Assembly (NCBI GenBank): GCA_024234055.1
Contig: JACKOW010000001.1
Coordinates: 146,710-210,709, forward strand
Length of the DNA stretch: 64,000 bases
Direction: 5' to 3'
Origin: Rhodanobacteraceae bacterium
Lineage (GTDB): Bacteria > Pseudomonadota > Gammaproteobacteria > Xanthomonadales > SZUA-5
Shown here piece after piece: positions 7,799 through 63,592 of this stretch. Position 1 is the first letter of the stretch. Each line of letters starts with the position of its first letter. The position numbers and the translations under genes were made by a program. The notes below the pieces were generated by a model that had not been told where the DNA came from, ran no database searches, and worked only from the letters and a program-made list of their open reading frames with translations.

Positions 7799-7810
7799 AG
7801 AGGACACGCA

Positions 7811-16575: not shown

Positions 16576-16676
16576 TCGTCGTGCTCTCGTCTAACCTTGC
16601 CGAAAAGAGGGGTCAACCCCCAACTCGGAGTAAGGTTGGAATAGGCCAAGCCCTGTAGTTGACTAGGAGTGTTGTA

Positions 16677-30700: not shown

Positions 30701-30963
30701 GTCTGACCTGCGGCCAGCGGGAACACGAACTCGCCTTCGAGCACGCGATTGTTGGGATTGTCGAAACGCAGTTCCAACGTGGTTCGGGCAATGAAGCCCT
30801 GCGTGCGAATCTGGATATCGAGTTCACCCAGGCTGATCGGCTTCAAGCCGCTGGCCGGGGCTATCCATACCTGAGGCGGATGCACCACGGCTTCGGCATC
30901 CGGGTTCTGCGCCTGGGCCGCGGGCAAGGTCAGGCAGGTCAGCAGCAACAGATATCGATACAC
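27712..30963 (-). CDS. secreted VIT + von Willebrand A + DUF2135-like C-terminal domain protein
   Basis: Signal MYRYLLLLTCLTLPAAQA, a VIT-like N-terminus, a vWA block (IALFFDASASA..IIGDGLSN), TPR-like middle and C-terminal YGPEVYTIRRPLPGTYVVLANYF. Confidence 0.8.
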   Translation of the reverse strand: MYRYLLLLTCLTLPAAQAQNPDAEAVVHPPQVWIAPASGLKPISLGELDIQIRTQGFIARTTLELRFDNPNNRVLEGEFVFPLAAGQTVAGYALEVDGVMREGVVVDKETARVAFEDTSRRRIDPGLAELTVGNVFRTRLYPIPAQGSKRVRLHLEATLSDQGDSWRYRLPMYFKDPVARLHLRAETALIAGKPLSDDGKVDPDLRFDRSGTAWVAEYTREQVRPRSELAFRIPKGQGQAQIEAADVIDPAWRSVVALIDSGRPERDTAIRPRRIALFFDASASARERNRQHETAALAAWLKALNKVDVQLVAFRNDADPVQRFSVRGGDGNALLAAIEALPLDGGSSYGAIDLRALGKVDQVLIIGDGLSNFGASEPTLVDSGGRRPTVQLMHAAQRADHARLARIARAGGGEVIDLGALSSADEAAGRLLQRQWRLLATRSIGGSCSDISPQAPTAVERTLTISARCRGRGTLELKLGYGEDAVVTRSIAFGRAEPANAALADTVHRLWAQAWLAQLASAAKPDSAAMSAIGKRFGVVTAGTSLLVLDRIEDYVRYRVEPREAPLLAEYRRLIASQPKPLADPGLEARLQSLRQRWQEFRDYHAASYPGIETLLLPMAETEFAAWPDSTDKTWSAGRGQAQTLLKQSRTLAQRWLREGAEPDSRRSWERQAAAVVFALEALRAQREQLPQMASPRQNRAEVDDQLADRDRGPAREVASMQAGASAPAPSSPRPAMPASAPSVPMPVSEERLDSPAAAAKAAGGPAAAEAVSNLSAQIELSGWNPETPYLADIRAADDPYLAYLAQREVHGQMPAFYLDVADFLRVQAKAPRLALRVLSNLAELDTENTALTRVLAYRLGQWNLYALAVPQFESALEQRPEEPQSYRDLALALARQDQPDRARAVELLWKVAIGEWHGRFPDIEIIALHELNDVLAQAPKEFDLDLAGLGIPTELLDPVAVGLRVVLSWDADNTDIDLWVVDPSGDKAVYSQPRTRTGGYMSRDFTGGYGPEVYTIRRPLPGTYVVLANYFGDRRQSLTGPVTIQLEFQTRFGTAHSERAATTRRLESGSQTIEIGRFKVGS

Positions 30964-36823: not shown

Positions 36824-39157
36824 GTGGCGACTCCGGAAATCCCCGGCTACAAGCTTCTCAAGCAGATCGGTTCCGGGGGAATGGCCACGGTGTATCTGGC
36901 CGTTCAGATTTCGCTGGATCGGAAGGTCGCGATCAAGGTGCTGCGCGGCACCGGCGATGACGATCCGGAGCGCACTGAAAAGCGCTTTCTGCGGGAAGGC
37001 CGCACGCTCGCCAAGATCACCCACAAGAATGTCTGCGGCATCTATGACATTGCCAAGGTCGATGAACTGGCCTACATCGCCATGGAGTACCTGGACGGCG
37101 GCACCTTGGTCGACCAGCTCAAGCGCGGCGTGTCGGTCGGCGAGGCCATTGCCATCGTCGTTCAGGTGGCCTCGGCGCTGGAAGAGGCGCACAAGCTCGG
37201 CATCATCCATCGCGATCTGAAGCCGGCCAACGTGATGCTGCGTGGCGGACGGGTGCCGGTGTTGACCGATTTCGGCATTGCCCGCGAGCTTACCGCCAGT
37301 CAGACCCGCATCACCGCCGAGAACATGATCGTCGGCACCCCGATCTACATGAGCCCCGAGCAGGTGTCCGGCGGCGAGGTCGATGGGCGCTCCGATCTGT
37401 ATGCGCTCGGCATCATGTTCTACGAACTGCTCACCGGTCAGCCGCCCTACAAGGGCGACACCCCGATTGCCGTGTGCATGCAGCACCTCACCGCAGCGCT
37501 GCCGACGATGCCGCCCAATCTGGCCGATCTGCAGCCGGTCATGGACCGGATGCTGGCCAAGCGTCGCGAGGATCGCTACTCGAGCATGAGCGAGTTCACC
37601 CACGCCCTGCGTGAGGTCTTCGTCGACTCCGACGCCATGCGCCAGGCTGCCAGCTTCAGTCCGGATACGCCGTGGTCCGAGCAGCTGCGTGAGCTGGGCT
37701 TTTCCTTCGACACCCTGCGCGACGCCGAATTCAAGGCGGCGTTGACCGAACAGCGGCGCGCGGTCGGGTCGCGCGGGCGCGGGCCGGCAAAGAAGAAATT
37801 ACCAGCCGCAGCCAGCGCTGTCGCTCGCCCCTGGTGGGTATATGCCATCGCTGCACTCTTGCTGCTGACCGTCGGTGCCGGCATCGGCTGGATGGTGCTC
37901 GGACCCAAACCCCCGACGGAGAACGAAGTCAAACTCCTGACCTTTCTTCGCGCCGAGTTTGCCGAGCGCATGGAGAAGGGGCAGTTGTACGAACCGATGG
38001 GGGACAGCGCCCTCGATACGGTGCGCAAGATGCAGGACGTACACCAGACCGCCGAGCAGACGCTGGACGCCGTGAAGATCCTGGGGGATTCGCTGGTCGA
38101 AAAGGCCCGCGGCGAACTGGCACGACGTGACATCCTGGCGTTGGATGTCAGTTTGGCGGTGTTGGACGAGCGCTTGCCGGACACGCCCGAACTGGCAGAA
38201 CTGAAGTCGAAACGCGAGCAGCTGGCCAACACGCTCGCCAAGGAAGCAGCGAACCGTGCACGTCTGGATCGTTTGCGCGAACTGGTCGATGGGGCAGCGC
38301 CCGGGCCGGGTGAGAGCGTGCAGCGCCTGTTCCTGCAGCTGCACCCCTTGCTGGCCTCTGATCCCGAATTCCAGGCGCTGGAGCCGCGCGCCATTGCCGC
38401 TGCCAGGGTGGCCATCGAAGCGTCGCTGGCGGCCGGCGAGACCCGGACAGCTTTGGACGCGGCGACCGAACTGGCCGACGTTCTGCCCCGCAACAAGGAT
38501 CTGGCAGAGCTGGTCGCCAGTCTCAAGCAAAGTGTCGCTGCGGCCGAGATCCAGCAGGCCGTGGGAGACTGGAATCGCACGCTGGCGGCACCTGGAGATC
38601 TGGATTCTGCGCGTCTGGCGACCCTGCTGTCGGGGTTGGCAAAACTGGATGAACTTGGCCAGTCGACCGCCGAACTGGCGCAGATGCGACAGCTGCTGTC
38701 GACGGTGGTGCTGAGCGAGGCCAACAACCTGGCCGGCAAGGGCGACTACGATGGCGCGCTGGCGCTCATCGGGCAGGCCCGTGCAGACCTGGTGACGGTA
38801 CCGGCCTTGATCGAGGCCCAGAATCGCATCGGTGCCGAGCGTGAAGCCGCATCCGAAGCCAGTCGCCAGGCGGCGCTGAAAGCGCGCCAGGGCCAGGTGG
38901 CCGTCAGCTCGGCGCCATGGGCCAAGATTGAACAGGTTGTCGATGGCGCGGGCAAGCGCATCGCGCTGCCCGCGGATGCGGCGACACCGCTGCTGCTGAC
39001 GCTGCCGGAGGGGCGCTATCTGGTGACTCTGGTTTCGGGGCAGGGCGGCGCCAGACGCCAGGAAGGCATCCAGATCGAAAGTGGCAAGTTGACGCGTGTG
39101 ACCGTGACATTCGCGGGCTACGACGCCGATGCCTTCATGCGCGAGGGGGGCTGGTGA
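36824..39157 (+). CDS. Ser/Thr protein kinase with TM and large extracytoplasmic domain
   Basis: GSGGMATVY..AIK, HRDLKPANV, DFG and SPEQ motifs. TM at about residue 335. Long helical C-terminal region ending in a PEGA-like beta domain. Confidence 0.88.
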   Translation: MATPEIPGYKLLKQIGSGGMATVYLAVQISLDRKVAIKVLRGTGDDDPERTEKRFLREGRTLAKITHKNVCGIYDIAKVDELAYIAMEYLDGGTLVDQLKRGVSVGEAIAIVVQVASALEEAHKLGIIHRDLKPANVMLRGGRVPVLTDFGIARELTASQTRITAENMIVGTPIYMSPEQVSGGEVDGRSDLYALGIMFYELLTGQPPYKGDTPIAVCMQHLTAALPTMPPNLADLQPVMDRMLAKRREDRYSSMSEFTHALREVFVDSDAMRQAASFSPDTPWSEQLRELGFSFDTLRDAEFKAALTEQRRAVGSRGRGPAKKKLPAAASAVARPWWVYAIAALLLLTVGAGIGWMVLGPKPPTENEVKLLTFLRAEFAERMEKGQLYEPMGDSALDTVRKMQDVHQTAEQTLDAVKILGDSLVEKARGELARRDILALDVSLAVLDERLPDTPELAELKSKREQLANTLAKEAANRARLDRLRELVDGAAPGPGESVQRLFLQLHPLLASDPEFQALEPRAIAAARVAIEASLAAGETRTALDAATELADVLPRNKDLAELVASLKQSVAAAEIQQAVGDWNRTLAAPGDLDSARLATLLSGLAKLDELGQSTAELAQMRQLLSTVVLSEANNLAGKGDYDGALALIGQARADLVTVPALIEAQNRIGAEREAASEASRQAALKARQGQVAVSSAPWAKIEQVVDGAGKRIALPADAATPLLLTLPEGRYLVTLVSGQGGARRQEGIQIESGKLTRVTVTFAGYDADAFMREGGW

Positions 39158-40580: not shown

Positions 40581-40618
40581 GCTGCAGACCTTTTGGCTGA
40601 TTGGGAAGACAACAACTC

Positions 40619-42235
40619 ATGCAGTTTCGTTCGGCATTGGCGATTGCAACTGGGCTCGTGGTGTTGGCGGCAGCGCCCGCGCACGCGGCGGAAAAGGCCG
40701 AACGCGCGGTCAAGGCCGGGTCCACCGGGCTGGCGATCAACAACTCCGGGCGGATCGACCTGGTCACGGCGGTGAACATCGACTTCCTCAATCGCAGCGT
40801 GGCCAATGGTCGACGGGTCATCAATCTGCGAGTGGCCCAGCCCTTGTTGTGCGCGGACTTCGCCACAGCGCCGGGCGGTGCGGTCAATCCCGTGGCCCTG
40901 GAGTATCGCGATCCGAACAACGAAAGCTCAGGCCTGATCTTCGGCGGTATCAGCAATTTCGACTATTTCACCAATGGCGCATCGCCTTCCCTGTTCAAGG
41001 TGAGTTCGGATGGCCAGCTGGCCTGCTGCGTGATGCAGCCGGCATCCAATGCCTCCTGTTTCCAGGGCAGTAACGGTGGACCGACGATCAATTCCCTGTT
41101 CGCCGACGGCTTCGAGAGCCTGCTTGCCAAGGCGGCCAAAGGCACGCCCGGCGCGGATCTGACGGTGCAGATCAGCGGTCCGTTGACCGTGGCACCGGGC
41201 GCCAACTTCAATTACACGATCACGGTCGCCAACACCGGCAGTGTGACCATCAGCAATGCCCGCGTGCGCGACTGGTTCCCGAAATCGAGTGGCGGCTTCC
41301 CGGCGCCCCTGGGCGCAGGTAGCTGGACTTGCACCGGCTCTGCCGGCGCCAGCTGTGGCGTGGGCAGCGGTACCGGCAACATCGCGTTGAACGCGGTGTC
41401 GCTGGATCCAGGTTCGAACGTCAATTTCAGCGTGTCGCGGCCGATGTCGGGCTCGGCACCGGACAGCACCTCGTTCTCGGTCAGCGCGGCCGCCTTTTCG
41501 CCGCCGGCCGTAGGTGAGCTGGGGCTGAGCAACAACCAGCGTGCGCTTACCGCCACGGTGCAGACCAGCGCGCCGCCAGTCATCAACTCGGTGCAGTTGC
41601 CGGCCGGCTTGCTGCTGGAAGATCAGACCATCGCCGGTATTCAGATCAATGCCAGCGACGCGGACAGCGTGCTGACGCCCGCCAGCTTCAGCTGCAGTGT
41701 CGGCGGCAGCCTGCTGAACACCGGTTCTTGCGTGTTCACCGGCACCGAACCGAACTTTCAGTTGAGCATCAGCCCGCAGGCCAACGCCAATGGCGCCGGC
41801 AGCTTCACGATCGGGCTGACCGACACCTTCACGCCGGTGACTCAGGCGGTGCCGGTGACGATCACTGCGGTCAACGATGCGCCAGAGTTCACGCTGGGCG
41901 CGAACATCTCGGTGCCCAATGGCACCACTGGCACCCAGATCGTCAGCGATTTCGTGACGGCGATCCGCAAGGGACCGGTGTCGGCCGGCGACGAGGCCAG
42001 TCAGACCTTCGTCGAGCGCGTGGTGTCGGTGGATTCGGGCGGAGCCATCTTCTCGTCGACGCCCGATATCAGCTACGGTGGTTCTACGGAATCGGGAACA
42101 CTGGCTTTCGGCCTGAACGGCAGCGCAGGCACGGCCGTGGTGCGCGTGCGCATGCAGGACAACGGCGGCACGGCCAACGGCGGTGTCGACGCCACCGAGA
42201 AGACCTTCACGGTCACGGTGCAGCCGCCCAACTAA
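40619..42235 (+). CDS. secreted repeat protein (DUF11-like + cadherin/VCBS-like modules)
   Basis: Signal MQFRSALAIATGLVVLAAAPAHA. LTVAPGANFNYTITVANTG (DUF11-type). VTITAVNDAPEF motif. Confidence 0.65.
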   Translation: MQFRSALAIATGLVVLAAAPAHAAEKAERAVKAGSTGLAINNSGRIDLVTAVNIDFLNRSVANGRRVINLRVAQPLLCADFATAPGGAVNPVALEYRDPNNESSGLIFGGISNFDYFTNGASPSLFKVSSDGQLACCVMQPASNASCFQGSNGGPTINSLFADGFESLLAKAAKGTPGADLTVQISGPLTVAPGANFNYTITVANTGSVTISNARVRDWFPKSSGGFPAPLGAGSWTCTGSAGASCGVGSGTGNIALNAVSLDPGSNVNFSVSRPMSGSAPDSTSFSVSAAAFSPPAVGELGLSNNQRALTATVQTSAPPVINSVQLPAGLLLEDQTIAGIQINASDADSVLTPASFSCSVGGSLLNTGSCVFTGTEPNFQLSISPQANANGAGSFTIGLTDTFTPVTQAVPVTITAVNDAPEFTLGANISVPNGTTGTQIVSDFVTAIRKGPVSAGDEASQTFVERVVSVDSGGAIFSSTPDISYGGSTESGTLAFGLNGSAGTAVVRVRMQDNGGTANGGVDATEKTFTVTVQPPN

Positions 42236-42277: not shown

Positions 42278-42376
42278 ATTCGAGCCTCCGCAGTGCCCAG
42301 TGGCTGCGGTTTGTCCGCAAGGTGCCTCGCGTCTGCCAGCGCCGTGACATCGATCACTGGGTCATAATCGTTGTGC

Positions 42377-44539
42377 ATGAAGACCCGCGAACAGGCTCCC
42401 CCGCGCACCCTGCCCGAGTGGCTGCTCAGGCATCCGACGCTGGGCGAAGCACTGGGCCCGGGTTTTGAGATCATCCATGACCAGCTCACCGCGATGGAAT
42501 CGGGTGCTGAACTCGAGTTCGAAGTGGCGCGAACGCTGGATGTGCTGCAGGACCTCGGCGTAGACAGCGATACCCTGCTGGCGGCTGCCTGGTTCCCCTT
42601 GCTGTTGCATCAGCCCGCGGCCCTGTCGCAGGCACTGGCGCGCCATGGCGCCGCCTTCGAGCCCTTGCTGCTGGGTCAGCTGGAAGCCGAGAAGATCTGG
42701 CCGCTGCACGAGCACAAGGCGGCGAATGCCAGTGCCGAGGGGCTGCGTCGATTGCTGCTGGCGCTGATTCGCGACCTGCGCGTGGTCTTCATCCTGCTGG
42801 CGCGGCAGCTGGTGCGGCTGCGCGCTGCCAGTCGCGGTGATGCCGAGGAGCGCCGCCGGCTGGCCCAGTTGACCGCCGATATCCACGGACCGTTGGCCAA
42901 TCGTCTCGGCATCTGGCAGGTCAAATGGGAACTGGAAGACCTGGTCTTCCGCTATCTGCAGCCCGATACCTACAAGCGCATTGCCAGCCTGCTGGATGAA
43001 CGCCGCGAGGATCGCGAGCGCTACATCAATCTGGTTCTGCGCGAACTGCGGCAGTCGTTGAGCGCGGCCGGCCTGCAGGCCGATGTCGCCGGCAGGCCCA
43101 AGCACATCTACAGCATCTGGAAGAAGATGCAGCGCAAGGAGGTGGACTTCTCCGAGCTCTACGACGTACGAGCCGTGCGCGTGCTGGTTCCAGACGTGCC
43201 CACCTGCTACGCCGCGCTCGGCGTGGTCCATGCCCGCTGGACGCCCATTCCGAAGGAGTTTGACGATTACATCGCCAAACCCAAGGGCAATGACTATCGC
43301 TCGCTGCACACGGCAGTGATCGGCCCGGAAGGCAAGGCGCTGGAAGTCCAGATCCGTACCCACGAGATGCACCAGCACGCCGAACTCGGCGTGGCCGCGC
43401 ATTGGCGTTACAAGGAAGGCGGCGGCGCTGGCGCCGATTTCGAGCGCAAGATCCAGTGGATGCGGCAGCTGCTGGAAAGCCGCGACGAGGGCCAGGACGA
43501 TGCCGCGCTGATCGCCGGCTTTTCCACCGAACTGCTCGAAGATCGCGTCTACCTGCTGACCCCCCGCGGTGCGGTCATCGATCTGCCGCGCGGCGCGACG
43601 GTGCTGGATTTCGCCTACACCGTGCACACCGAAGTCGGACACCGCTGTCGCGGTGCCAAGGTCAACGGCCGCATCGTGCCCCTGACCTTCACGCCGCGCA
43701 CCGGCGACAGGGTGGAGATCCTGACCGCCAAGGAAGGCCAGCCCAAGCGCGACTGGTTGTTGCCACAACTGGGTTACCTGGCCAGCACCCGATCGCGCCA
43801 CAAGGTGCGGGCCTGGTTCCACAAGCTGGACCGCGAGCAGAATGTGCGCGATGGCCGCGACATCCTCGAGCGCGAGTTGAAGCGTCTGGCGCTCACGCCG
43901 GGCAAACTGGAGCCGCTTCTGCCTAAGTTCCACGTCGAATCGCTGGACGAGCTGTACGTGGCCGTGGCCCTGGGCGATCTGTCGCCAGCCCAGGTGGCGC
44001 GCGTAGTCCACGAGGCTGATGCGCCCAAGGCCGATCCGGCCCAGATCCTGACCCAGCGCCTGGGCTCACAGATCGGCCCACGCCGCGACAAGGACGCCAT
44101 CGTCATCGAAGGTGTCGGCAATCTGATGGTGACCATGGCCGGCTGCTGCAATCCGCTGCCCGGTGATGCCGTGGTCGGCTTCATCACCAAGGGCCGCGGT
44201 GTCAGCGTCCATCGCGCCGACTGCAAGAGCCTGCTGAATCTCTCCGGGCGCTCCCCCGAGCGCGTCATCGACGTGCAATGGGGTGGCAAACGCGACGATC
44301 GCTACGCCGTGAAGGTGCGGGTGTCGGCCTTCAACCGCACCGGCCTGATCCGCGATGTCGGTGCCGTGCTCGCTGCCGAGCAGATCAACATCGGCGCCAT
44401 GGACAGCAAGGACGACCCCGGCAGCGGCTACGCCACCCTGCATCTCACCCTGAAAGTGGCCGATTTCGGCCAGCTGGCCAATGTACTGACCAAGCTGCGC
44501 TCGCTCAGCAATGTCACCGAGGCCGAGCGGGTGGGGTAG
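42377..44539 (+). CDS. relA: GTP pyrophosphokinase, (p)ppGpp synthetase I
   Basis: Synthetase core DYIAKPKGNDYRSLHTAV..QIRTHEMH, a TGS domain and a C-terminal ACT domain. HD catalytic residues are degenerate, as in RelA. Confidence 0.92.
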   Translation: MKTREQAPPRTLPEWLLRHPTLGEALGPGFEIIHDQLTAMESGAELEFEVARTLDVLQDLGVDSDTLLAAAWFPLLLHQPAALSQALARHGAAFEPLLLGQLEAEKIWPLHEHKAANASAEGLRRLLLALIRDLRVVFILLARQLVRLRAASRGDAEERRRLAQLTADIHGPLANRLGIWQVKWELEDLVFRYLQPDTYKRIASLLDERREDRERYINLVLRELRQSLSAAGLQADVAGRPKHIYSIWKKMQRKEVDFSELYDVRAVRVLVPDVPTCYAALGVVHARWTPIPKEFDDYIAKPKGNDYRSLHTAVIGPEGKALEVQIRTHEMHQHAELGVAAHWRYKEGGGAGADFERKIQWMRQLLESRDEGQDDAALIAGFSTELLEDRVYLLTPRGAVIDLPRGATVLDFAYTVHTEVGHRCRGAKVNGRIVPLTFTPRTGDRVEILTAKEGQPKRDWLLPQLGYLASTRSRHKVRAWFHKLDREQNVRDGRDILERELKRLALTPGKLEPLLPKFHVESLDELYVAVALGDLSPAQVARVVHEADAPKADPAQILTQRLGSQIGPRRDKDAIVIEGVGNLMVTMAGCCNPLPGDAVVGFITKGRGVSVHRADCKSLLNLSGRSPERVIDVQWGGKRDDRYAVKVRVSAFNRTGLIRDVGAVLAAEQINIGAMDSKDDPGSGYATLHLTLKVADFGQLANVLTKLRSLSNVTEAERVG

Positions 44540-44768: not shown

Positions 44769-46364
44769 TCATGGACGCAGCAGCTGCTGGCCGCACAACA
44801 AATAGGTGTCACTGGCGAGATCCAGGCAATAGCGTTCGGCGATCTGGTAAGGGCCAGACGTGGTTGCCCCATCCACCGCCAATTCGCGCTCGTCGGCCTC
44901 ACTCAGCACTTCCTGGCGCCGGATCACCGCTACCGACTGGGCGTCGTCGGCCATCTCGATCGAGACATAGCCCCAGCCCGCGCACAGATCCGGCCCGTAG
45001 CCGTCCAGGCTCAGGGCCCTGCGCAGATAGCCCTCCTGATCATTGGCGATCCACGCGCTGAAACTGACCCGTTCGCAGGCGCCGTTCTGACCCTCGCCGC
45101 TTGATGGTGCATCCAGTCGATACGGTTGCACCAGGAGCCAGCGGTGCGGATCCAGCTGTCGCGGCGCGCTCAGCTGGTCGGCAAGCGGTCCACCGAGAAC
45201 AGTGGTGTAGGCGGGCTCGTCGAGTTCGCCGGACGATTCGAAATCGGCGTCAGGGGCGCTGGAATCGGGACCCCCAGACAGGTCAAGCTGGGTCGCAGCG
45301 ATCGACTGTTCACGCAGCTGATAGACCATGTCCGGTCCACAGATCCATTGATCTTCCGCCAGGGCCAGCGAGCTGTACTCCTCCCAGACCAGTTCCGGAC
45401 TCAGCCGATTCGGGTCGGGTCGGTCCAGGTAGCCGCCGCCGGGCAATGCCAGATGGAATCGTCGAGCAACCACGCGCAGCCCCAGTTCCAGCGGCGGGAT
45501 TCGATGCAGAGATGGATATTCCCACTGGTCGCGTGCAGGCAGGTCGCAGCGACTGAGCTGCATGCGCAACGGCTGTGGCAGCGACAGCGTGGCCGTTTCT
45601 CCGGGGGGCAGTGGTTGCCCGCCCGGGCCGAGGATTTCCGGCAGGCAGCGGTTCTCATCGGGCTCGCAGACCGACACCTGAAGATGCACGGTCTGCAGCG
45701 TCAGCTCGTGCAGCGCCGGCAATGACTCCCAGGGAATCAGCCAGACGAAATGCTGGCCATGGTCATTGTCCAGGCGAGTCAGACCCGGCGGCAACTCGGC
45801 CGCCAGTTCCTGCATGCCCTGATCCAGCGCCAGCTGCGAGAAAGCAGCGGTCGAGTCCTGGCTGGCGCCGTCGGCCGACACCCGGTAGCTGCGCTGCAGC
45901 AGCGCCAACAGCTGCTGGCGATGCCGCTCCTGGGCAGCAAACCATTCCGGGCAGTAGGCCAGAGCGTCGGCATCGAGACCGAGTTCGGTGCAATCCCGTG
46001 CGTTGCGCAAGGGATGCTCTGCGCGCTGCCAGCCGATCGGGGGCAGCTGGACCTCGGCCATCGTCGCCAGTTTCAGCCTCCAGACCCAATTCCCCGGTGT
46101 CGTCTGTGCCGATGATCCGATGCTTCCCAGCAGGATCAGGCCGTCCGATCGCTCAAAGATCTGGAGCTGTGCCGGCGCGCCGTCCGGCCGGGGTTGTTGT
46201 GCCTGCACCCGCAGCAGCGTTTGCAGGCTGTCGCTGTCGGCCAACCATTCGATCTTGCGTTCCTCACCTGCGCCCAACAAGACCTCGGGCGGGTCGTTTT
46301 CCCACTGGGCGTTGCCAATGCCGACCACGGCGAAACCCAGAAGCAAGGCAAACAGGCGCTGCAT
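44769..46364 (-). CDS. secreted hypothetical protein
   Basis: Start at ATG 46364 gives signal MQRLFALLLGFAVVGIGNA. 531 aa, no recognised domain. Confidence 0.55.
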   Translation of the reverse strand: MQRLFALLLGFAVVGIGNAQWENDPPEVLLGAGEERKIEWLADSDSLQTLLRVQAQQPRPDGAPAQLQIFERSDGLILLGSIGSSAQTTPGNWVWRLKLATMAEVQLPPIGWQRAEHPLRNARDCTELGLDADALAYCPEWFAAQERHRQQLLALLQRSYRVSADGASQDSTAAFSQLALDQGMQELAAELPPGLTRLDNDHGQHFVWLIPWESLPALHELTLQTVHLQVSVCEPDENRCLPEILGPGGQPLPPGETATLSLPQPLRMQLSRCDLPARDQWEYPSLHRIPPLELGLRVVARRFHLALPGGGYLDRPDPNRLSPELVWEEYSSLALAEDQWICGPDMVYQLREQSIAATQLDLSGGPDSSAPDADFESSGELDEPAYTTVLGGPLADQLSAPRQLDPHRWLLVQPYRLDAPSSGEGQNGACERVSFSAWIANDQEGYLRRALSLDGYGPDLCAGWGYVSIEMADDAQSVAVIRRQEVLSEADERELAVDGATTSGPYQIAERYCLDLASDTYLLCGQQLLRP

Positions 46365-46562
46365 GCGAGATCCTGGGTGATGGGCTATTGAGGCGCCAGT
46401 CTGCGTCAGGAATCGCCCTGTGCGATCACGACAAAGCGGACCCTTTCGAGGCAAATCCGGGGTGCGAGTCAGATAAGGCAGCCGCAGAACTGCCAACTGC
46501 AAACCGCCAAGCGCTGGCCCGGTTCGTTATGATCCGCGCTCCACTGTAGGGGCTGTCCTACG

Positions 46563-48284
46563 ATGCGCGTCCGTGTCCTGATCTTGCTGCTGGCCTTGCT
46601 GATCGGCAATACCGCCACAGCAGCCAAGGTGGGCCCCTCGCCGTGGCCGCAGACCCGTGAACTTCCGGCAGGCGAAGGCCCTTGGGTGGTGCGTGCCCGC
46701 TTCACGTCCGATCAGTCGCTGACTCGATTGCTGGAGCGGGCGGCGCCGTGGCGGGTGGATCGTGATGCCGGGCAGCTGATCATCGAGGTCAACTCTCGCG
46801 CCGAATATCAACAACTGCTGGACGAGGGCTTTGCAGTTGCCGTCGATCCAGAGCTGACTGCCGAGGCCTTCGGTCCGGTGCCGGAAACGCCGGACCAGAC
46901 CGAGAGCATCTCGGGCTATCCCTGTTACCGTACGGTCGAAGAAAGTCTGGCCAGTGCCCAGGCTTTGGTGGCGCAACACGGCGCCATCGCCGAGCTGGTC
47001 GACATCGGCGACAGCTGGAAGAAGCAGCAGAACGCCGCGCAGGGCTACGATCTGTGGGTGCTGCGGCTGACCAATCGATCCATCCCCGGCATCAAGCCCG
47101 TGCACTATCTGCAGGGCGGTTTGCACGCCCGCGAGTACGTGACCTCCGAGACCGTTTTGCGCTATGGCGAATGGTTGGCGGCGCAGTACGATGTCAATCC
47201 GGATGTGACCTGGATACTGGACCACCAGGAGGTGCATATCCTGTTCCATGCCAATCCGGATGGGCGCAAGGTGGCCGAAGTCTCCAGCACGCGCTCGCAG
47301 CGCAAGAATCGCGACGAAAACTACTGCTCGACCGGAAGTACTACGGTGGGCGTGGACAACAACCGAAATTTCCCCTTCGACTGGGGTGGTCCGGGCAGCT
47401 CTGGGACGGCATGCAATGAGACCTTCAGAGGTCCCGCAGCCGCTTCGGAGCCAGAGTCGCAGGCCATCATTGCCTACCTGCAGCAGATCTTTCCCGATCA
47501 ACGCAACGAAGGGCCGGGCGTCGATCTGGTGACCCCGGTGTCGCTCGATGCCACCGGCATCTACATGGATGTGCACAGCAACGCCGGCACTACCTGGTGG
47601 CCCTGGGGCAATGTCAACGGCGTGTTTGCGCCGAATCGTTTCGAGCTGCAGACACTGGGCCGCAAGATCGCCTATTACAACGGGCTGACGCCGGAACAGT
47701 CGAATGCGGGCGGCGCCATCGGCGGCGCCACGGATGACTTCACCTATGGCACGTTGGGTGTGGCTGCATTCACCATCGAAATGGACGGGAGCAGTTTCTG
47801 GCCGAGCTGCACCAGCTACGAAAACACCCTGGTACAACCCACGCTGGATGGATTCTTCATGGCCTCCAAGCTGGCGCGCGCGCCCTATCGCTGGGCTGCC
47901 GGCCCGGAGATCGTCAATGTGCTGGCCGCGCCGGCCCAGATCAGTCTGGGCGGCACGGTGACCATCACTGCGCGCGCCGAAGACGCCCGATTCAACAACA
48001 CCGTCGGCACCGAGCCCTCGCAGACGGTGACCAGTGTGGCCATCTACGCCATGCCACCGTGGCAGGCGGGCGCCACGGCGCTGGCCCAGTTCCAGCCGAG
48101 CGACGGCGCCTTCAACAGCACTACCGAGAACATCACCGTTGACCTGCCCGCCAGCAGCCTGAGTGCCGGCCGTCAGCTGCTGTATCTGCGTGCCACCGAT
48201 GCCCTCGGCAACGCAGGCCCGGTGGCTGCGGTCTTCGTGACCGTCGGCCAGTCCGATCCCCTGTTCCAGAACGGTTTCGAGTAG
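46563..48284 (+). CDS. secreted M14-family zinc carboxypeptidase with C-terminal beta domain
   Basis: Signal peptide plus HAREY zinc-binding region, NPDG, and later H and E catalytic motifs. Confidence 0.85.
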   Translation: MRVRVLILLLALLIGNTATAAKVGPSPWPQTRELPAGEGPWVVRARFTSDQSLTRLLERAAPWRVDRDAGQLIIEVNSRAEYQQLLDEGFAVAVDPELTAEAFGPVPETPDQTESISGYPCYRTVEESLASAQALVAQHGAIAELVDIGDSWKKQQNAAQGYDLWVLRLTNRSIPGIKPVHYLQGGLHAREYVTSETVLRYGEWLAAQYDVNPDVTWILDHQEVHILFHANPDGRKVAEVSSTRSQRKNRDENYCSTGSTTVGVDNNRNFPFDWGGPGSSGTACNETFRGPAAASEPESQAIIAYLQQIFPDQRNEGPGVDLVTPVSLDATGIYMDVHSNAGTTWWPWGNVNGVFAPNRFELQTLGRKIAYYNGLTPEQSNAGGAIGGATDDFTYGTLGVAAFTIEMDGSSFWPSCTSYENTLVQPTLDGFFMASKLARAPYRWAAGPEIVNVLAAPAQISLGGTVTITARAEDARFNNTVGTEPSQTVTSVAIYAMPPWQAGATALAQFQPSDGAFNSTTENITVDLPASSLSAGRQLLYLRATDALGNAGPVAAVFVTVGQSDPLFQNGFE

Positions 48285-48570: not shown

Positions 48571-49824
48571 ATGGACCTCGATCTGATCCACTACCGTGAG
48601 CTGGACGCGCGTCTGGTGTCGCTGGTCAAGGACATCAAGATGCTCAGCACACTGAGCTGGCCCAAACGCGCGCAGGAAGAATTTCTGGCAGCCTGGCGCG
48701 CCGGAAATCCTTATCTGCCCGAGGTCAAGTACAAGAAGTTTGACTACAGCGACCGTCGCGCCGGTCTGGCGGAGATCTTCGATCAGTGCGAGCCGGATCA
48801 TCCGATCGGCCAGTACCTGCAGAACACCGTGATCTCCTGGCAGGTGGCCACGCTGTTGCTGGAACGCCTGGGTACGCCGCAGATGACCGAATACTCGATC
48901 AATCTGTACGGTCGCCCGGGCGATCAGATCGCCGGATCGGCGGTCAACAACCTGCAGGCGGCCGAGCATTTCATCAGCGTGGCCGATGACGTCATGGGCA
49001 ACAGCGCGCTCACTGAAACCGAATACTGCCTGTCGGCCGATATTCTCAAGAACGAGATGGAACACCGGCTGGGCGAGGTCTTCACCCAGGACAAGGTGTC
49101 CATCGAGATCGATCCGGATCTGGTGGCCAAGGCCGCCGCCGGCCCCACGCGCATCCGCCTGCGTGCCGGCACCTGCTTTTCCGACTACGATCTCTCGCAG
49201 CTGCTGGAGCACGAGGCCTTCGTGCACTCGCTGACCTCACTGAATGGGCGCGCCCAGAGCAATCTCGGCAGTCTGGGCCTGAATTCGCCCCGGATCACCG
49301 CCACCCAGGAAGGGCTGGCGGTGTTTGCCGAACTGGTCACCGGCTCGATCGACATTACCCGGATGAAGCGCATCTCGCTGCGCATCCAGGCGATCCATAT
49401 GGCGCTGCATGGCGCCAATTTCATCGAGGTGTTCCGCTTCTTCCTGGACCAGGGACAGACCGAAGCCGAGAGCTTCACGTCAACCATGCGCGTGTTCCGA
49501 GGTGCACCGACCACTGGCGGGCATGCCTTCACCAAGGACACGGTCTATCTGCACGGCCTCCTGTCGGTGCATACCTTTTTCCGGTGGGCGCTGCGTTCGG
49601 GCAAGCTGGAACTGGCCCAGCACCTGTTTGCCGGCAAGATGACGCTGCAGGATGTGGTGGGCCTGGAGCCCTTCGTACAATCCGGATTCATCGATCCGCC
49701 GAAGTATCTGCCGCCATGGATGCGCCGCAGCAACGGCCTTGCCGGCTATCTGTCCTTCTCGCTGTTCGTCAATCGCATCCGCCTCGATCAGGTCGAACGA
49801 GAGCATGTGCTGATGGGTGTGTAG
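48571..49824 (+). CDS. DUF1704 / QEGLA-motif protein
   Basis: Contains HEAFVH and the diagnostic TQEGLAVFAE motif. 417 aa. Confidence 0.8.
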   Translation: MDLDLIHYRELDARLVSLVKDIKMLSTLSWPKRAQEEFLAAWRAGNPYLPEVKYKKFDYSDRRAGLAEIFDQCEPDHPIGQYLQNTVISWQVATLLLERLGTPQMTEYSINLYGRPGDQIAGSAVNNLQAAEHFISVADDVMGNSALTETEYCLSADILKNEMEHRLGEVFTQDKVSIEIDPDLVAKAAAGPTRIRLRAGTCFSDYDLSQLLEHEAFVHSLTSLNGRAQSNLGSLGLNSPRITATQEGLAVFAELVTGSIDITRMKRISLRIQAIHMALHGANFIEVFRFFLDQGQTEAESFTSTMRVFRGAPTTGGHAFTKDTVYLHGLLSVHTFFRWALRSGKLELAQHLFAGKMTLQDVVGLEPFVQSGFIDPPKYLPPWMRRSNGLAGYLSFSLFVNRIRLDQVEREHVLMGV

Positions 49825-59336: not shown

Positions 59337-59517
59337 GTTGTTCAGAATTCACACACGAAACGTCCAAAAAGCTGAGTCAGGACTCTACTTGCGGCGGAAT
59401 GGGCCGAGCGGCACCTGCCCTCGGCGCTTGCTGCCGACTTCCACGCCTCGGCATACTCCATGACCTGCCGTAGTGATTCTGTGTGCTGCGGAGCCACACT
59501 CTCACGAGCATTGATCG

Positions 59518-60363
59518 ATGAGCAAATCGAAACCGGTCTACGTAGACGTGCCCGCCGGCAGTTTCGTTTTCCGCGAAGGCGACGCGGGCAGTGACATGTT
59601 CATCATCGAGACCGGCTCGGTCGAGATTCTGCGCCGTGCCCGCGGTGAGACGCCGATCGCGACTTTGGGTCCTGGCGATTTCTTCGGCGAAATGGCCATC
59701 CTCGAAGATCAGCCGCGCTTTGCCGCGGTTCGGGCTGCGACGGCCACGCGTCTGTTGCGCATCGACCGCGCCGCCTTTGCCGACATGTTGCGCGACAACT
59801 TCGAAATCGCGGTACGCATCATGCGCAAGCTGGTGGCACGCTTGCGACGGACCGAGGAGCAGATGCAGGCGGTTCAGGAAGAACTTGATCGGCTCAAGCG
59901 CGGTACTGCGCCTTCCCGGCCTGGCGGACCCGTCGCCAGCACCTTCGGCCCGGCCGAAACGGTCAAGGCCGATCTGTCGCAGACCCGGTCGCCGCCAGTG
60001 CGCCGCGCCGCACCGGTCGATCCAGCGCGTATCGGCAAGCCAATCAAGCTGGTGCATGTGGCCAGCGGCAGCGAGTTTGCGCTGAACAGCAGCAAGCCGG
60101 AATTGCTGGTGGGTCGGCCCGATCCGGTCACCGGCATCTTGCCCGAGATCAATCTGGGGCCCCTGGATACCCAGCGCAGCCTGTCGCGGCGTCACGCCAA
60201 GGTCGTGATCGAGGGCGGCATGCCCTTCTTGCGCGAAGAGGTTGGAACCACCAACGGTACCTACGTCAACGGCGAGCGGCTGCCCACCGGGCAGGCGCGG
60301 CCGCTGGCCATAGGTGATACGCTTCGGTTCGGATCGGTGGAGTTGAAGGTGGAGTCCCTGTGA
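59518..60363 (+). CDS. cyclic-nucleotide-binding domain + FHA domain protein
   Basis: cNMP beta-barrel (FREGDAGSDMFIIETG..GDFFGEMAIL..R.A.V.A) and a C-terminal FHA (GRPD..SRRHAKV..TNGTYVNGERL). Confidence 0.8.
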   Translation: MSKSKPVYVDVPAGSFVFREGDAGSDMFIIETGSVEILRRARGETPIATLGPGDFFGEMAILEDQPRFAAVRAATATRLLRIDRAAFADMLRDNFEIAVRIMRKLVARLRRTEEQMQAVQEELDRLKRGTAPSRPGGPVASTFGPAETVKADLSQTRSPPVRRAAPVDPARIGKPIKLVHVASGSEFALNSSKPELLVGRPDPVTGILPEINLGPLDTQRSLSRRHAKVVIEGGMPFLREEVGTTNGTYVNGERLPTGQARPLAIGDTLRFGSVELKVESL

Positions 60364-60421
60364 CCGATTCCACGGCCGTGATCGTGCGGAGTCTGCAGCA
60401 GACCTTGACAGCGGAGGTGAC

Positions 60422-61414
60422 ATGGCTCTGGATTTGAATTCGGTGGATCTCAGTGCCGTCGAGGCGCTGGCAGCGATCAAGTCCGAGCAGGACCAGCTCG
60501 GAGAGCGACTGAAGACCATGGAGAGCAAGCGTTCCCAGGTCTCTGCCGAGGTCTACCAGCGCGTCCACTCCGACTACCGCAAGCGTCAGGCTGAACTGAT
60601 GTCTCAGGCGGCGCCTCTGATTCAAAAGGCGGGCGAGTCCTACCGCGCCTTGCGCATGGAATTGATTGAGCTGGAATCGGCCTTCAAGACGGCGCAGCTT
60701 GACCGTGAGGAAGTCGATTTTCGCCACGCCCTCGGCGAGTTCGACGAGAAGGAGCTGGCCAACCGCGTCAAGGCCGTCGATGCGCGCATCGCCGAGCACG
60801 GCAAGGCGCGGACCCGGGCTTTGGCGTTGAAGGAGCGCTTCCTTGCCGTTGTCACCCAGGAGTCGGATCTCGATACCAGCGACGAAGACACCGCGCGGAT
60901 GGAGGCGATTCCGGCTTCTGTTGCACAGGGCGACTCTGCAGCGACGGTAATTGCCGCGCCGATCAAGGATGCCGCGCCCAAGGGTGATCCGGATGCCACG
61001 CTGGTGGCGCCGCTGCCGCCCCTGAAGCCTGTGCCGCCGCCAGCGGCAGTTGTCAGCGCGGCGACGCCGCCGCCTGCGCCAGCGGTCAAGCGACCGCGCA
61101 ATCCGGATGCCACCGTGGTATTCCGCCAGGGCCGACTGGAGCCGCGCAATGCCGAAGCCGGGTCGGTGGTGCAGACACTGGGTCTGAAGCCGATCAGCAT
61201 TGGCAGCGATTCGGCCTGCGATCTGCAGTTGACAGCGCCCGGGATTGCCAAGCGCCAGCTGGAGATCACGATGACCCGCGCCGGATTCTGCGTGCGTGAC
61301 GTGGCTGCCAACGGCGCAGTCAAGATCAATGGCGAGATGGTGCAAGAACGCGTGTTGGCTGAGAGTGATACCCTTTCGGTCGGCCCCGCCCAGTTCAACT
61401 TTAGACTGTTATGA
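60422..61414 (+). CDS. coiled-coil + Pro-rich linker + FHA domain protein
   Basis: About 160 aa of heptad-like N-terminus and a C-terminal FHA-like ISIGSDSACDLQL..KRQLEI..NGAVKINGEMV. Confidence 0.7.
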   Translation: MALDLNSVDLSAVEALAAIKSEQDQLGERLKTMESKRSQVSAEVYQRVHSDYRKRQAELMSQAAPLIQKAGESYRALRMELIELESAFKTAQLDREEVDFRHALGEFDEKELANRVKAVDARIAEHGKARTRALALKERFLAVVTQESDLDTSDEDTARMEAIPASVAQGDSAATVIAAPIKDAAPKGDPDATLVAPLPPLKPVPPPAAVVSAATPPPAPAVKRPRNPDATVVFRQGRLEPRNAEAGSVVQTLGLKPISIGSDSACDLQLTAPGIAKRQLEITMTRAGFCVRDVAANGAVKINGEMVQERVLAESDTLSVGPAQFNFRLL

Positions 61415-61421
61415 GGATCGC

Positions 61422-61958
61422 ATGGCGCTAGATATCGGCAGCGAAACCCACGGAGACTTCCGAGTGCTCCGTCTGAACGGCCGTCTCGACACTGAGACTT
61501 CCGCTGATTTCGAACTCGCAGCGCACGACCTGACGTCTGCGGGGGAGAACAAGTTCATCGTCGACCTGGCCGGCATCAGCTACGTCAGCAGTGCCGGTCT
61601 GCGCGTCTTGCTGGCATTGGCCAAACAGATGAGCAATGGCGGCAGTCTGAGGCTATGTGGTCTGGCGCCGAGCGTGCGTCAGGTGTTTGATCTGTCCGGA
61701 TTCAGCAAGCTGTTTTCCATCGCCCCCGATCTGAACGCCGCGCTGGCAGAGGGTGGGGTCACTGCTGCGTCCCCGACACCGGCGCTCAGCAATGCCGCGG
61801 CAGACCTGCTGGGCGCTACCCAGGCGCCAACGTCGCCATCTACATCGCCCGCGGCCAGTCCGCAGGTGGGTCGTCAGGCGGCCGATTTGCTGGGTGCGAA
61901 GTCGGCGCCCAAGCCCGGCTTGATCGCGCGCATCCTGGCCTGGTTCAAAGGCCAATGA
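61422..61958 (+). CDS. STAS-domain anti-sigma-factor antagonist-like protein with low-complexity tail
   Basis: Start at ATG 61422. STAS core FIVDLAGISYVSSAGLRVLL with the phosphorylatable Ser context. The tail has a duplicated AADLLGA motif. Confidence 0.8.
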   Translation: MALDIGSETHGDFRVLRLNGRLDTETSADFELAAHDLTSAGENKFIVDLAGISYVSSAGLRVLLALAKQMSNGGSLRLCGLAPSVRQVFDLSGFSKLFSIAPDLNAALAEGGVTAASPTPALSNAAADLLGATQAPTSPSTSPAASPQVGRQAADLLGAKSAPKPGLIARILAWFKGQ

Positions 61959-62032
61959 TTTCGGTTCTGGCTGCAAGCCTGGGGGCATTCCGGCACGAGT
62001 GGTCGTTGTGGGCAGCTTGATGGCTCGCGCGT

Positions 62033-63592
62033 CTACTGGCGCAGTCTTCCCAGGCAAATGATCGTGAGGTCGTCGGTGGAGCGATCCTTGCCGACGAATT
62101 CCAGCAGGGACTTGCGCAACGCCTGATTGATTTCTCCGGCGGTATCGCAGGACAGCAACACCTGGTCTCGCCGCGCCTTCCCGTAGAGTTCGCCGGCGGT
62201 GTTCTCACCTTCATCGACGCCGTCGGTGGTCAGGATCAGGCAGTCGCCCGGGGCCAGTGCCAACTTCTGCTCCCTGACCTGCAGATCCATATCGGTGCCC
62301 ACCGGCGAACCCGGGTCCAGGCCCATTTCAATCACCTTGCGCGCGGCTGTACGTAACACCGGTGGCGAGTGGCCTGCCAGTCCCACGCGGCACATGCCGG
62401 TGCGGGTGTTGATGAATACGGCGGCGACGGTGGCAAACATGCCTGGTTCCAGCACCGGATTCAGGCTGCGCTGCAAGTTCTCCAGCAGATCGGCCGGGCC
62501 CACCTTCAGCTTGAGCTGATGGCGCAGGTCGGCGACCAGATAGGACATGTACATCGCGCCGGAAACACCCTTGCCCGAGACATCGCCGATGACCACCGCC
62601 AATTCTTCGTTGCTGCGCATTTCGATGTGGAAGAAGTCGCCGCCGACCATCATGGCCGGCGTGTAGCTCATCGCCAGTTCAAAACCATCGATCTTGGGTG
62701 GAGCAGGCGTCAGCAGGCGCTGCTGGATACGTTGAGCCAGGCGCAGATCAGAATCGCGCATCTTGCGTGAGCCGGCGGCCGCCTGGGCGCGCAGTGCGGC
62801 CAAGGGGATGCGCAACAGCAGCGAGGCTTCTTCCAGATCGCTCAGCGTGATCGCTACCGGGCGGCGCTCGCCATGGTCCGTGCCACCTTCCAGCAGCAGG
62901 CCAACCTGATGATCGATGGGAACGGCAATGAACGGCGCGATCTTCTCCACCGCCAGTGCCCTGGCCAATTGCTGACACTGTTCCGGCATCCATACAACCA
63001 CGCCCTGGGGCTCGGACTTCAGGGCAGAGAGGGCCCGAAACAGGGTGCTGCGGGAGATTTCCGCGCCTTGCGGGGCGCGCGCCAATATGCGCCCTGCGCG
63101 CCAATCGACCATGCTTGCGCGCGTGGCCGTCGGCAAGCACGAGAGCAGAGCCTTCAGGGCATTGCAGGCAAGTTCCTCAGGAGCATCATTTTCGCCCTTG
63201 AGTGCTGCCAGCATTCGGTTTGACAAACCCAGTGGCTCGGTGGCGCTTCCGGTGGGCGTGTCGGCCACGTTCGCCGCTGCAGGCCCGGTGCCGCGTACCG
63301 TACCAGCCAGCTGCGAACTGAAGGTCAGGGTCACACGGCCAAGGCTGATGACATCACCCTCGGCGAGAGCGCGATCGCCAATCAGCTTGACGCCGTTGAT
63401 CTCGGTGCCGTTGGCGCTGCCGAGATCGCGAAGGCGCCAGCCGTTTTCGGATTTCAGCAGCTCCGAATGGCGTCGCGACACTGTGGGATCATCAATGGAG
63501 TACTCGACCGACGGATCGCGGCCGAGGATGCCCTCGCCCTCGAGCTTCAGTACCCGACCCTTGGCCCCACCATTGAGTACGACCAGAAACAT
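62033..63592 (-). CDS. FHA domain + PP2C/SpoIIE-family phosphatase
   Basis: N-terminal FHA (GRDPS..SRRHSEL..SANGTEINGV) and C-terminal GGDFFHIE...VIGDVSGKGVSGA...TDGVDE. Confidence 0.85.
   Translation of the reverse strand: MFLVVLNGGAKGRVLKLEGEGILGRDPSVEYSIDDPTVSRRHSELLKSENGWRLRDLGSANGTEINGVKLIGDRALAEGDVISLGRVTLTFSSQLAGTVRGTGPAAANVADTPTGSATEPLGLSNRMLAALKGENDAPEELACNALKALLSCLPTATRASMVDWRAGRILARAPQGAEISRSTLFRALSALKSEPQGVVVWMPEQCQQLARALAVEKIAPFIAVPIDHQVGLLLEGGTDHGERRPVAITLSDLEEASLLLRIPLAALRAQAAAGSRKMRDSDLRLAQRIQQRLLTPAPPKIDGFELAMSYTPAMMVGGDFFHIEMRSNEELAVVIGDVSGKGVSGAMYMSYLVADLRHQLKLKVGPADLLENLQRSLNPVLEPGMFATVAAVFINTRTGMCRVGLAGHSPPVLRTAARKVIEMGLDPGSPVGTDMDLQVREQKLALAPGDCLILTTDGVDEGENTAGELYGKARRDQVLLSCDTAGEINQALRKSLLEFVGKDRSTDDLTIICLGRLRQ

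Follow-up and report, generated by a model that had tools for sequence, protein, structure and literature searches.

A stretch of 64,000 nucleotides from a Rhodanobacteraceae bacterium (contig JACKOW010000001.1 of assembly GCA_024234055.1; hereafter the window) carries, at positions 59518-63592, three co-directional genes and one convergent gene, located between the divergent atpI-atpBEFHAGDC genes and a MAPEG gene. They encode a protein in which a cyclic nucleotide monophosphate (cNMP)-binding domain is joined to a forkhead-associated (FHA) domain, a coiled-coil protein with a degenerate FHA fold, a STAS protein, and a phosphatase in which an FHA and a GAF-like domain precede a PP2C domain of the SpoIIE/RsbU type. 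These four genes very probably constitute one functional module. Synteny across dozens of genomes places the adjacency of the gene set far beyond chance, and the genes are kept together despite shuffling of their order, which is strong evidence for a functional link. The module is proposed to act as a partner-switch-like STAS/PP2C system without a kinase of its own, fed by phosphothreonine from Hanks-type kinases, by cyclic nucleotides and by a GAF ligand; to this mechanism as a whole, every step of which is inferred, a probability of about 0.4 is assigned.

Conservation of the gene set was followed in 72 loci, fetched from one-genome-per-species contigs via alignment of cNMP-FHA homologues, all of them of Lysobacterales type (Rhodanobacteraceae, Tahibacter, Rudaea, Dokdonella and Ahniella). 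Neighbouring genes were scored by tblastn, and counts were limited to the 52 loci whose downstream sequence reached 4.5 kb or more. Of these loci, 49 carry the coiled-coil FHA gene, 49 the STAS gene and 33 the convergent phosphatase gene, with protein identities across syntenic loci dropping to about 30-45%. Arrangements outside the Lysobacterales were reached from distant phosphatase homologues and a metagenome scan. On a 4.5-Mb contig of a Thermoanaerobaculia metagenome-assembled genome (Acidobacteriota; locus L082), genes for a cNMP-FHA protein (49% identical) and a STAS protein (36% identical) face an FHA-GAF-PP2C gene. Two unclassified metagenome contigs carry further variants: the first (L091; guanine plus cytosine (GC) content of 72%) has the order cNMP-FHA, STAS, facing PP2C and coiled-coil FHA gene, and the second (L086; GC content of 50%) has the coiled-coil FHA, STAS and FHA-GAF-PP2C genes on one strand, the cNMP-FHA gene being absent. 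Four other distant FHA-GAF-PP2C genes stand alone. The recurring core outside the Lysobacterales is a STAS protein with an FHA-(GAF)-PP2C phosphatase and at least one further FHA protein; as accessories, the cNMP sensor and the coiled-coil protein can there replace or supplement each other. This census bears out the original prediction, made from the window's sequence, that the genes form a module, for which a lack of conserved synteny had been named as a refutation. A separate arrangement was seen at locus L084 (6578-10301), where an FHA-PP2C gene (35% identical) neighbours the MAPEG gene that is also found in the window, the trio of cNMP-FHA, coiled-coil and STAS genes being absent; the gene immediately after it is that of AceK, the isocitrate dehydrogenase kinase/phosphatase.

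The original prediction had also named the four genes, their domains and their positions, all of which were confirmed by Pfam and by public gene calls: the coordinates of all four are an exact match to those of a Lysobacterales metagenome-assembled genome (GCA_041395365.1, JAWLAS010000002.1; Table 1). Their spacing is operon-like, with 58 nt between the first and second genes and 7 nt between the second and third, and GAGGA precedes the STAS start, 7 nt past the stop codon of the coiled-coil FHA gene. Upstream of the cNMP-FHA gene, when the atpI/cNMP-FHA intergenic regions of seven relatives are aligned, CTTGCTGC and TCGGCATACTC are the sole invariant blocks, the flanks being otherwise unalignable. 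The element made up of these blocks was not picked up by a simple promoter consensus scan; its conservation suggests that it is probably the operon promoter. No shared terminator was found between the convergent STAS and PP2C genes, and terminator-like sites were not above shuffle expectation.

The phosphatase belongs, as had been predicted, with the PP2C/SpoIIE enzymes: its catalytic motifs are intact, and both alignment and Foldseek place its PPM domain in the RsbU/SpoIIE class. The aspartates D337, D457 and D507-D508 are invariant in 33 homologues, in which the remaining positions of the GDVSGKG, TDG(V/L)(D/E)E and DD(L/F)T motifs vary little or not at all. Among PDB sequences, the RsbU-like domain of Rv1364c matches best. 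Searched with an AlphaFold2 model (mean predicted local distance difference test (pLDDT) score of 86), Foldseek returned Rv1364c-RsbU, RssB, SiaA, SpoIIE and RsbX as top matches, with the Hanks-associated phosphatases PstP, tPphA and PppA ranking below them. The N-terminal FHA domain appears canonical family-wide, its Arg being found in 33 of 33 full-length sequences and its Ser and Asn each in 38 of 39, and can be a phosphothreonine reader. Between these two domains, the model has an alpha/beta domain whose size and order fit a GAF domain. Pfam GAF is absent from the window protein at E<=0.01; homologues at 28-31% identity, aligned over 97-99% of the length of the window protein, carry GAF PF13185 and PF01590, which suggests a divergent GAF-like sensor at this place. 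Four syntenic orthologues of 369-391 residues are without the GAF-like domain.

With the anti-sigma factor antagonist family TIGR00377 (NCBIfam), the STAS protein reaches 74 bits, well over the cutoff of 53. Its Ser57 aligns with the phospho-serine of SpoIIAA in structures 1TH8, 1TID and 1AUZ, and the 1TID chain has, compared with 1TH8, an Ala at exactly this position. The surrounding YxSSAGL motif is present in 54 of 55 STAS homologues. The retained phospho-acceptor serine and the TIGR00377 score thus agree with the original description of the protein as a STAS antagonist. MlaB was considered as another identity and rejected (22.6 bits against a cutoff of 90). The domain is followed by a conserved tail of about 70 residues with two AADLLGA motifs, both of which persist in the Acidobacteriota copy. 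In homologues, the tail ends in GFFARLLGIFRK, SWKRLFGK or LGKLKNLFGGKK, and these ends are basic-hydrophobic and amphipathic. A strict form of the C-terminal pattern is found in 35 of 55 homologues, and looser variants are found in most others. The hydrophobic moment of the C-terminal end is 0.38-0.53, compared with 0.45 for the membrane-targeting sequence of Escherichia coli MinD (KGFLKRLFGG). This resemblance suggests tethering of the STAS protein to the membrane.

The cNMP-FHA protein belongs to a family of 260 clusters at 50% identity (E<=1e-30; full HMMER scan of 1.84 billion cluster representatives), and more than 100 of the best 150 clusters are full-length, at 240-370 residues. Its cyclic-nucleotide-binding (CNB) domain has the phosphate-binding cassette FGEMAILEDQPRFA, which aligns with the cassettes of PKG and PKA. 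Gly57 and Arg67 of this cassette are invariant and Glu58 is nearly invariant in 17 homologues, and the residue after the cassette Arg is Phe and not Ser, Thr or Ala. The Gly-Glu pair and the cyclic-phosphate Arg by which cyclic-nucleotide binding is judged are present, and on sequence grounds the domain is predicted to bind a cyclic nucleotide. Similarly, the FHA residues Gly199-Arg200, Ser223, His226 and Asn246-Gly247 are invariant in the 17 homologues, and the long beta3-beta4 loop is conserved, as is the C-helix that follows the CNB domain; the protein appears to carry a canonical FHA domain that can be a phosphothreonine reader. Elsewhere, single open reading frames at L130 (1602-2408) and L144 (1196-2449) consist of a CNB domain, a helical linker and a SpoIIE-type PP2C domain. 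The fused CNB domains are about 43% identical to that of the L082 cNMP-FHA protein, and the components they join are separate proteins in the window. These fusions indicate that such sensors regulate such phosphatases elsewhere.

For the coiled-coil protein, AlphaFold2 modelling from a 29-sequence alignment (mean pLDDT of 84) gave three long helices, at residues 11-35, 42-103 and 109-143 (pLDDT of about 97), a disordered linker, with pLDDT below 50 across most of residues 161-223, and an FHA fold. The coiled coil of the original prediction is thereby recovered. No homologue of the helical N-terminal domain was found by Pfam, NCBIfam, Foldseek against the PDB or a PDB profile search, and Foldseek against the PDB matched FHA domains only, such as those of GarA and FhaA. 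A seryl-tRNA-synthetase-arm identity, from a single Pfam match in one homologue, was judged spurious, and the domain is treated here as an uncharacterised, predicted antiparallel coiled coil. A census of the FHA residues in this family, with GarA as alignment reference, found the phosphothreonine-binding Arg in none of 56 Lysobacterales-type homologues, the window protein included, where Ala or Ser stands instead. The phosphothreonine-binding Ser is kept in four of 57 aligned sequences, and in most sequences His, Gly or Ser stands in place of the Asn, the window protein having Gly-Ala-Val there. By its residues, the domain is a pseudo-FHA, although its modelled fold is still that of an FHA domain. 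Thus, of the three FHA domains taken as phosphothreonine readers in the original prediction, two have canonical GR, SRxH and NG motifs, and that of the coiled-coil protein has lost the Arg and Ser. The L086 homologue, which has no cNMP-FHA gene nearby, has canonical IGRG, SRRH and NGT motifs.

The linker of the coiled-coil protein is rich in a short threonine motif. Thr-[QMLVIF]-[VMILF] occurs 126 times, against 24.2 expected from shuffles, an enrichment of about five-fold; it is present in 57 of 58 sequences, and at least two copies are found in 41. To judge from its residues, the protein resembles a scaffold recognised by readers more than it resembles a reader. At L091 (3335-4306, at the contig end), the linker has five tandem repeats of the ADAT[MV]L[ED] type (four SADAT and one SAGAT), an array that expands on the PDATLV and PDATVV motifs seen in the window protein.

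A kinase or a sigma factor for the STAS protein was sought by phmmer with SpoIIAB, RsbW, RsbT and RpoE in 10,932 stop-to-stop open reading frames from the window and 96 loci (97 sources), with +/-10 kb examined per locus. No RsbW/SpoIIAB/RsbT-type kinase was detected at E<0.01 in this cis sequence, and Pfam tables of the neighbours and of 40 further open reading frames of the window likewise held no anti-sigma kinase. No sigma factor was found in the window with the RpoE query or in the Pfam scans of the 40 further reading frames. As had been predicted, the window thus has neither an anti-sigma kinase nor a sigma factor by these two approaches. Genes for extracytoplasmic function (ECF)-type sigma factors lie near two loci only (L029 and L083), which are unrelated to each other. 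Hanks-type kinases do occur in the neighbourhood: a 777-residue Pkinase protein is encoded inside the window (36824-39157, + strand), and an 807-residue Pkinase+TPR protein about 5 kb past its end (L001, 2530-4953). These two are candidate phosphothreonine writers. A functional link of the module to either was rejected, as neither is syntenic beyond the closest relatives. No consistently linked output candidate was found, a sigma54-type AAA+ activator being divergent from the module in L082 only. This L082 gene (10229-11404; 391 residues) is divergent from the cNMP-FHA gene, and its product, a possible output, has no receiver or other N-terminal sensor domain detectable by Pfam.

From these components, we infer a phosphothreonine-gated form of partner switching. 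A kinase from outside the module would keep the STAS protein phosphorylated on Ser57, and the FHA-GAF-PP2C phosphatase would remove this phosphate, upon which the STAS protein would switch partners. Phosphatases of the SpoIIE/RsbU class dephosphorylate STAS proteins (PMC11418112), and action on phosphorylated Ser57 is therefore the most economical reading of this phosphatase. An amphipathic helix at its C-terminus would tether the STAS protein to the inner membrane, and the two AADLLGA motifs of its tail would be docking sites. Meanwhile, unlinked Hanks-type kinases would phosphorylate the Thr-hydrophobic-hydrophobic repeats in the linker of the coiled-coil pseudo-FHA protein. The canonical FHA domains of the phosphatase and the cNMP sensor would dock on the resulting phosphothreonines, and the scaffold would decide when both meet. 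The enriched Thr motifs of this linker are the best candidate found for an FHA target. Binding of a cyclic nucleotide may shift the C-helix in a probable dimer and so, like binding of a GAF ligand, tune this assembly, and the output would be the partner bound by unphosphorylated STAS protein, without a cis-encoded sigma/anti-sigma pair. A further reading, possible but less likely than not, is that the module represents a partner switch of a separate class, independent of RsbW-type kinases. In this class, Hanks-type kinases would write phosphothreonine marks on the scaffold and possibly phosphorylate the STAS protein too, the FHA readers of the phosphatase and of the cNMP sensor would assemble on these marks, and the resulting membrane-tethered STAS switch would control an output other than a sigma factor.

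Several observations weigh against the proposed mechanism. FHA domains read phosphothreonine and not phosphoserine. Since the STAS acceptor is a serine, the FHA domains cannot read the phosphorylated STAS protein and must connect elsewhere, and it is synteny alone that links the FHA half of the module to the STAS/phosphatase half. The convergent phosphatase is absent at 19 of 52 loci, which suggests that the trio can do without a neighbouring phosphatase or use one from another locus. Tahibacter amnicola (L080) has a MAPEG gene directly 3' of the STAS gene and no adjacent phosphatase, and at L081, whose cNMP-FHA protein is 70-71% identical to that of the window, the trio lies away from the atp genes and also lacks an adjacent phosphatase. 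Hanks-type kinases are near only five of the 97 sources, namely the closest relatives of the window and L024, and T231 of the linker borders on the FHA fold and may have a structural role. About eight of 55 STAS homologues are without the amphipathic end. Further, the kinase search by phmmer used Bacillus queries, and a very divergent kinase could be missed.

The main rival is a classical partner switch, in which an RsbW-type kinase/anti-sigma factor and a sigma factor are encoded elsewhere, the FHA-GAF-PP2C phosphatase corresponds to RsbU and the other FHA proteins modulate its input. A STAS protein that passes the TIGR00377 cutoff and keeps the phospho-serine, together with a phosphatase of the RsbU/SpoIIE class, is what such a switch would contain, and with +/-10 kb covered per locus, a distal kinase is possible. 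In known partner-switch systems, however, the kinase normally adjoins its STAS partner, and here no RsbW-, SpoIIAB- or RsbT-like open reading frame lies beside the module in any of the 97 sources, which span several lineages. The conserved STAS tail with its membrane-type C-terminus is also foreign to RsbV and SpoIIAA, and ECF sigma genes are near only two loci, which are unrelated to each other. A classical switch is considered rather unlikely on this balance. It is improbable, in turn, that the FHA proteins are metabolic regulators like GarA and OdhI that bind enzymes, with ATP synthase as a candidate, in response to phosphorylation and cyclic nucleotides, the STAS protein and phosphatase serving to reset them. 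The FHA domains match GarA and OdhI best in structure and sequence, a cyclic-nucleotide input would suit energy sensing, and a divergent atpB lies within 4.5 kb at 47 of the 55 loci with upstream room. But this adjacency is lineage-specific: it is lost in L081 and absent in L082, L086 and L091, and at many loci atpI is separated from the module by inserted, unrelated genes for secreted proteins. With the trio away from atp in L081 and no atp genes in the non-Lysobacterales variants, the atp link is lineage synteny and was rejected as functional evidence. The FHA proteins also lack the N-terminal ETTS-type autoinhibitory phospho-motif of GarA, and their likeness to it is that of a generic FHA fold only.

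A last explanation, that the genes are chance neighbours or a cNMP-sensing anti-phage effector set of the Pycsar kind, is effectively refuted by the synteny census. FHA, STAS, CNB and PP2C domains are all common and promiscuous, and the CNB domain gives weak PADLOC matches (37-45 bits) to Pycsar effector and cyclase models. These matches span the generic CNB domain only, and the other three proteins have none; no cyclase, TIR or membrane effector is nearby, and the neighbourhood is a stable housekeeping one and not a defence island. Synteny persists down to protein identities of about 30-45% and across phyla, despite order shuffling.

The closest known systems to the proposed kinase-less module are the RsbU-RsbV-RsbW and SpoIIE-SpoIIAA-SpoIIAB switches of Bacillus and the non-sigma variants HsbR-HsbA, BtrU-V-W, SypE-SypA and SiaA-B-C. 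Like the Bacillus switches, the module has a single-domain STAS protein with a phospho-acceptor serine at the same position and an adjoining SpoIIE/RsbU-class PPM phosphatase with sensory N-terminal domains. Unlike partner switches, it has no cis RsbW/SpoIIAB kinase (97 sources) and no consistent sigma gene, its phosphatase input is an FHA domain and two further FHA proteins, one of them cNMP-binding, accompany it, and its STAS protein has a conserved motif-bearing tail and an amphipathic end. Because neither a cis RsbW-type kinase as switch partner nor an identifiable output is present, the module is not filed as a canonical partner switch. In Mycobacterium tuberculosis, the Hanks-type kinase PknD phosphorylates the STAS anti-anti-sigma homologue Rv0516c at Thr2, outside the canonical serine (PMC1847690). 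By analogy, this may serve as a precedent for the cross-talk between Hanks-type kinases and STAS proteins that is implied by the FHA domains of the module, although the PknD-Rv0516c system has no FHA protein, cNMP sensor or dedicated FHA-PP2C phosphatase. The CNB-PPM fusions, which include myxobacterial PP2C-cNMP proteins (PMC2887360) and those of L130 and L144, likewise associate a CNB domain with an intact cassette with an RsbU-type phosphatase. In the module, by contrast, the CNB domain shares its polypeptide with an FHA domain and not with the phosphatase, so that coupling must go via protein-protein, perhaps phosphothreonine-dependent, contacts. Together, the PknD-Rv0516c precedent and the CNB-SpoIIE-type fusions make the proposed mechanism plausible.

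On the FHA side, the plant protein KAPP has an FHA domain fused to a PPM phosphatase, as in the module, and such a domain could direct the enzyme to phosphothreonine-marked proteins; the KAPP catalytic domain, however, is of the eukaryotic PP2C subfamily, and that of the module is of the SpoIIE/RsbU subfamily. Disordered, Thr-bearing linkers serve as phospho-docking sites in Rv1747 and in Bdellovibrio DgcB, a role like that proposed for the linker here, and the FHA folds of the module match GarA, FhaA and DgcB. The GarA architecture (an N-terminal Thr phospho-motif and a single FHA domain in about 140-160 residues) is not matched by the module proteins, for which NCBIfam scores for OdhI and FhaB are 17-52 bits against cutoffs of 125-200. 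None of the KAPP, GarA/OdhI, Rv1747 and DgcB systems has a STAS or CNB-FHA protein. FHA-SpoIIE fusions have been catalogued only (PMC2887360, PMC12088040). A literature search found no paper describing the operon or the combination of cNMP-FHA, STAS and FHA-PP2C proteins, in agreement with the earlier view of this combination as uncharacterised.

Partner switching through STAS, RsbU and RsbW and signalling through Hanks-type kinases and FHA domains are usually treated as separate, and evidence of cross-talk, such as that for PknD and Rv0516c, is anecdotal. The present operon unites parts of both phospho-signalling systems with a cyclic-nucleotide sensor and a GAF-like domain, without a kinase of its own. 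Its hosts have Lysobacterales-type genomes, mostly metagenome-assembled, and include at least one Acidobacteriota lineage; Tahibacter and Dokdonella are among the cultured hosts. Were the module the separate class of partner switch described above, it would hard-wire the two main bacterial systems of Ser/Thr phospho-signalling to second messengers, from Gammaproteobacteria to Acidobacteriota. If the proposed mechanism is true, the module would offer a tractable system for FHA targeting of an RsbU-type phosphatase, a route to the role of pseudo-FHA scaffolds and to STAS switching without an anti-sigma kinase, and a role for hypothetical proteins annotated as 'FHA domain-containing' or 'cyclic nucleotide-binding'.

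Table 1. Genes, domains and motifs of the module in the window (nt, window positions; aa, residues of the encoded protein).
Feature	Position (nt)	Length or residues (aa)	Strand	Details
Conserved promoter-like element	59427..59458		+	CTTGCTGC, 13 bases, TCGGCATACTC; fits TTGCTG-N18-CATACT
cNMP-binding + FHA protein	59518-60363	281 aa	+	Pfam cNMP_binding E 5e-24, FHA 5e-11
CNB domain		10-94	+	
Phosphate-binding cassette of CNB domain	59683-59736		+	FGEMAILEDQPRFAAVRA
C-helix, then Pro/Ala-rich linker, then canonical FHA	within 59518-60363	C-helix to ~127	+	
FHA motif GR	60109-60123		+	
FHA motif SRRH	60178-60198		+	
FHA motif NGT	60247-60264		+	
Coiled-coil + pseudo-FHA protein	60422-61414	330 aa	+	Pfam FHA 2e-8
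Three-helix antiparallel domain	60422-60871	1-150		AlphaFold2 model
Disordered linker		151-235		three Thr-hydrophobic-hydrophobic motifs
Linker motif SAA-T175-VIAA	60944-60946 (T175)			
Linker motif PDA-T193-LVAP	60998-61000 (T193)			
Linker motif PDA-T231-VVFR	61112-61114 (T231)			
FHA fold		236-330		Gly-Ser for Gly-Arg, Ala-Lys-Arg-Gln for Ser-Arg-x-His
STAS protein	61422-61958	178 aa	+	Pfam STAS 8e-19
STAS domain		1-110		
Ser57	61590-61592	57		SpoIIAA phospho-serine position
AADLLGA motifs of STAS tail	61794-61817 and 61878-61898		+	
Amphipathic C-terminus of STAS protein	61917-61955		+	GLIARILAWFKGQ
FHA - GAF-like - long helix - SpoIIE/RsbU-type PP2C phosphatase	62033-63592	519 aa	-	Pfam FHA 2e-16, SpoIIE (PF07228) 2e-41
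Canonical FHA	63314-63592	1-93	-	
GAF-like alpha/beta domain	62873-63232	121-240	-	
Linker helix		250-293	-	44 residues; AlphaFold2
PPM domain	62036-62695	300-519	-	
PPM motif GDVSGKG	62567-62587		-	
PPM motif TDGVDE	62210-62230		-	
PPM motif DDLT	62063-62080		-	

Other genes were noted beside module variants and elsewhere in the window. Beside the L086 variant (8805-12641) lie genes for an ABC transporter whose N-terminus bears two FHA domains, an architecture like that of Rv1747, and for a C39-peptidase ABC exporter. A complete-looking type II secretion cluster, unrelated to the module, occupies window positions 4469-16009 and comprises the GspE ATPase, GspF, a G-type pseudopilin, minor pseudopilins, GspK, a PilN-like component, GspM and the secretin GspD. 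A secretion-system reading of the Yop-YscD_cpl and TagH matches of the module proteins was rejected, as these matches are FHA-fold similarity below the family cutoffs and the secretion cluster is 43 kb off. A full-length RelA/SpoT homologue with HD, RelA_SpoT, TGS and ACT domains is encoded 15 kb upstream of the module (42371-44539, + strand); it adds a further enzyme of nucleotide second messengers to this region and is not syntenic with the module. Four large open reading frames with high GC content at third positions have no Pfam match (16659-18269, 24131-26164, 40601-42235 and 44769-46502), and a 1083-residue protein (27712-30963, - strand) combines a VIT domain at its N-terminus with a DUF2135 domain at its C-terminus. 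An M14 zinc carboxypeptidase gene (46563-48284) is followed by a gene (48571-49824) whose product is a strong bacterial match (PF08014, E 9e-115) to MATCAP, a family that takes its name from a eukaryotic microtubule-associated tyrosine carboxypeptidase.

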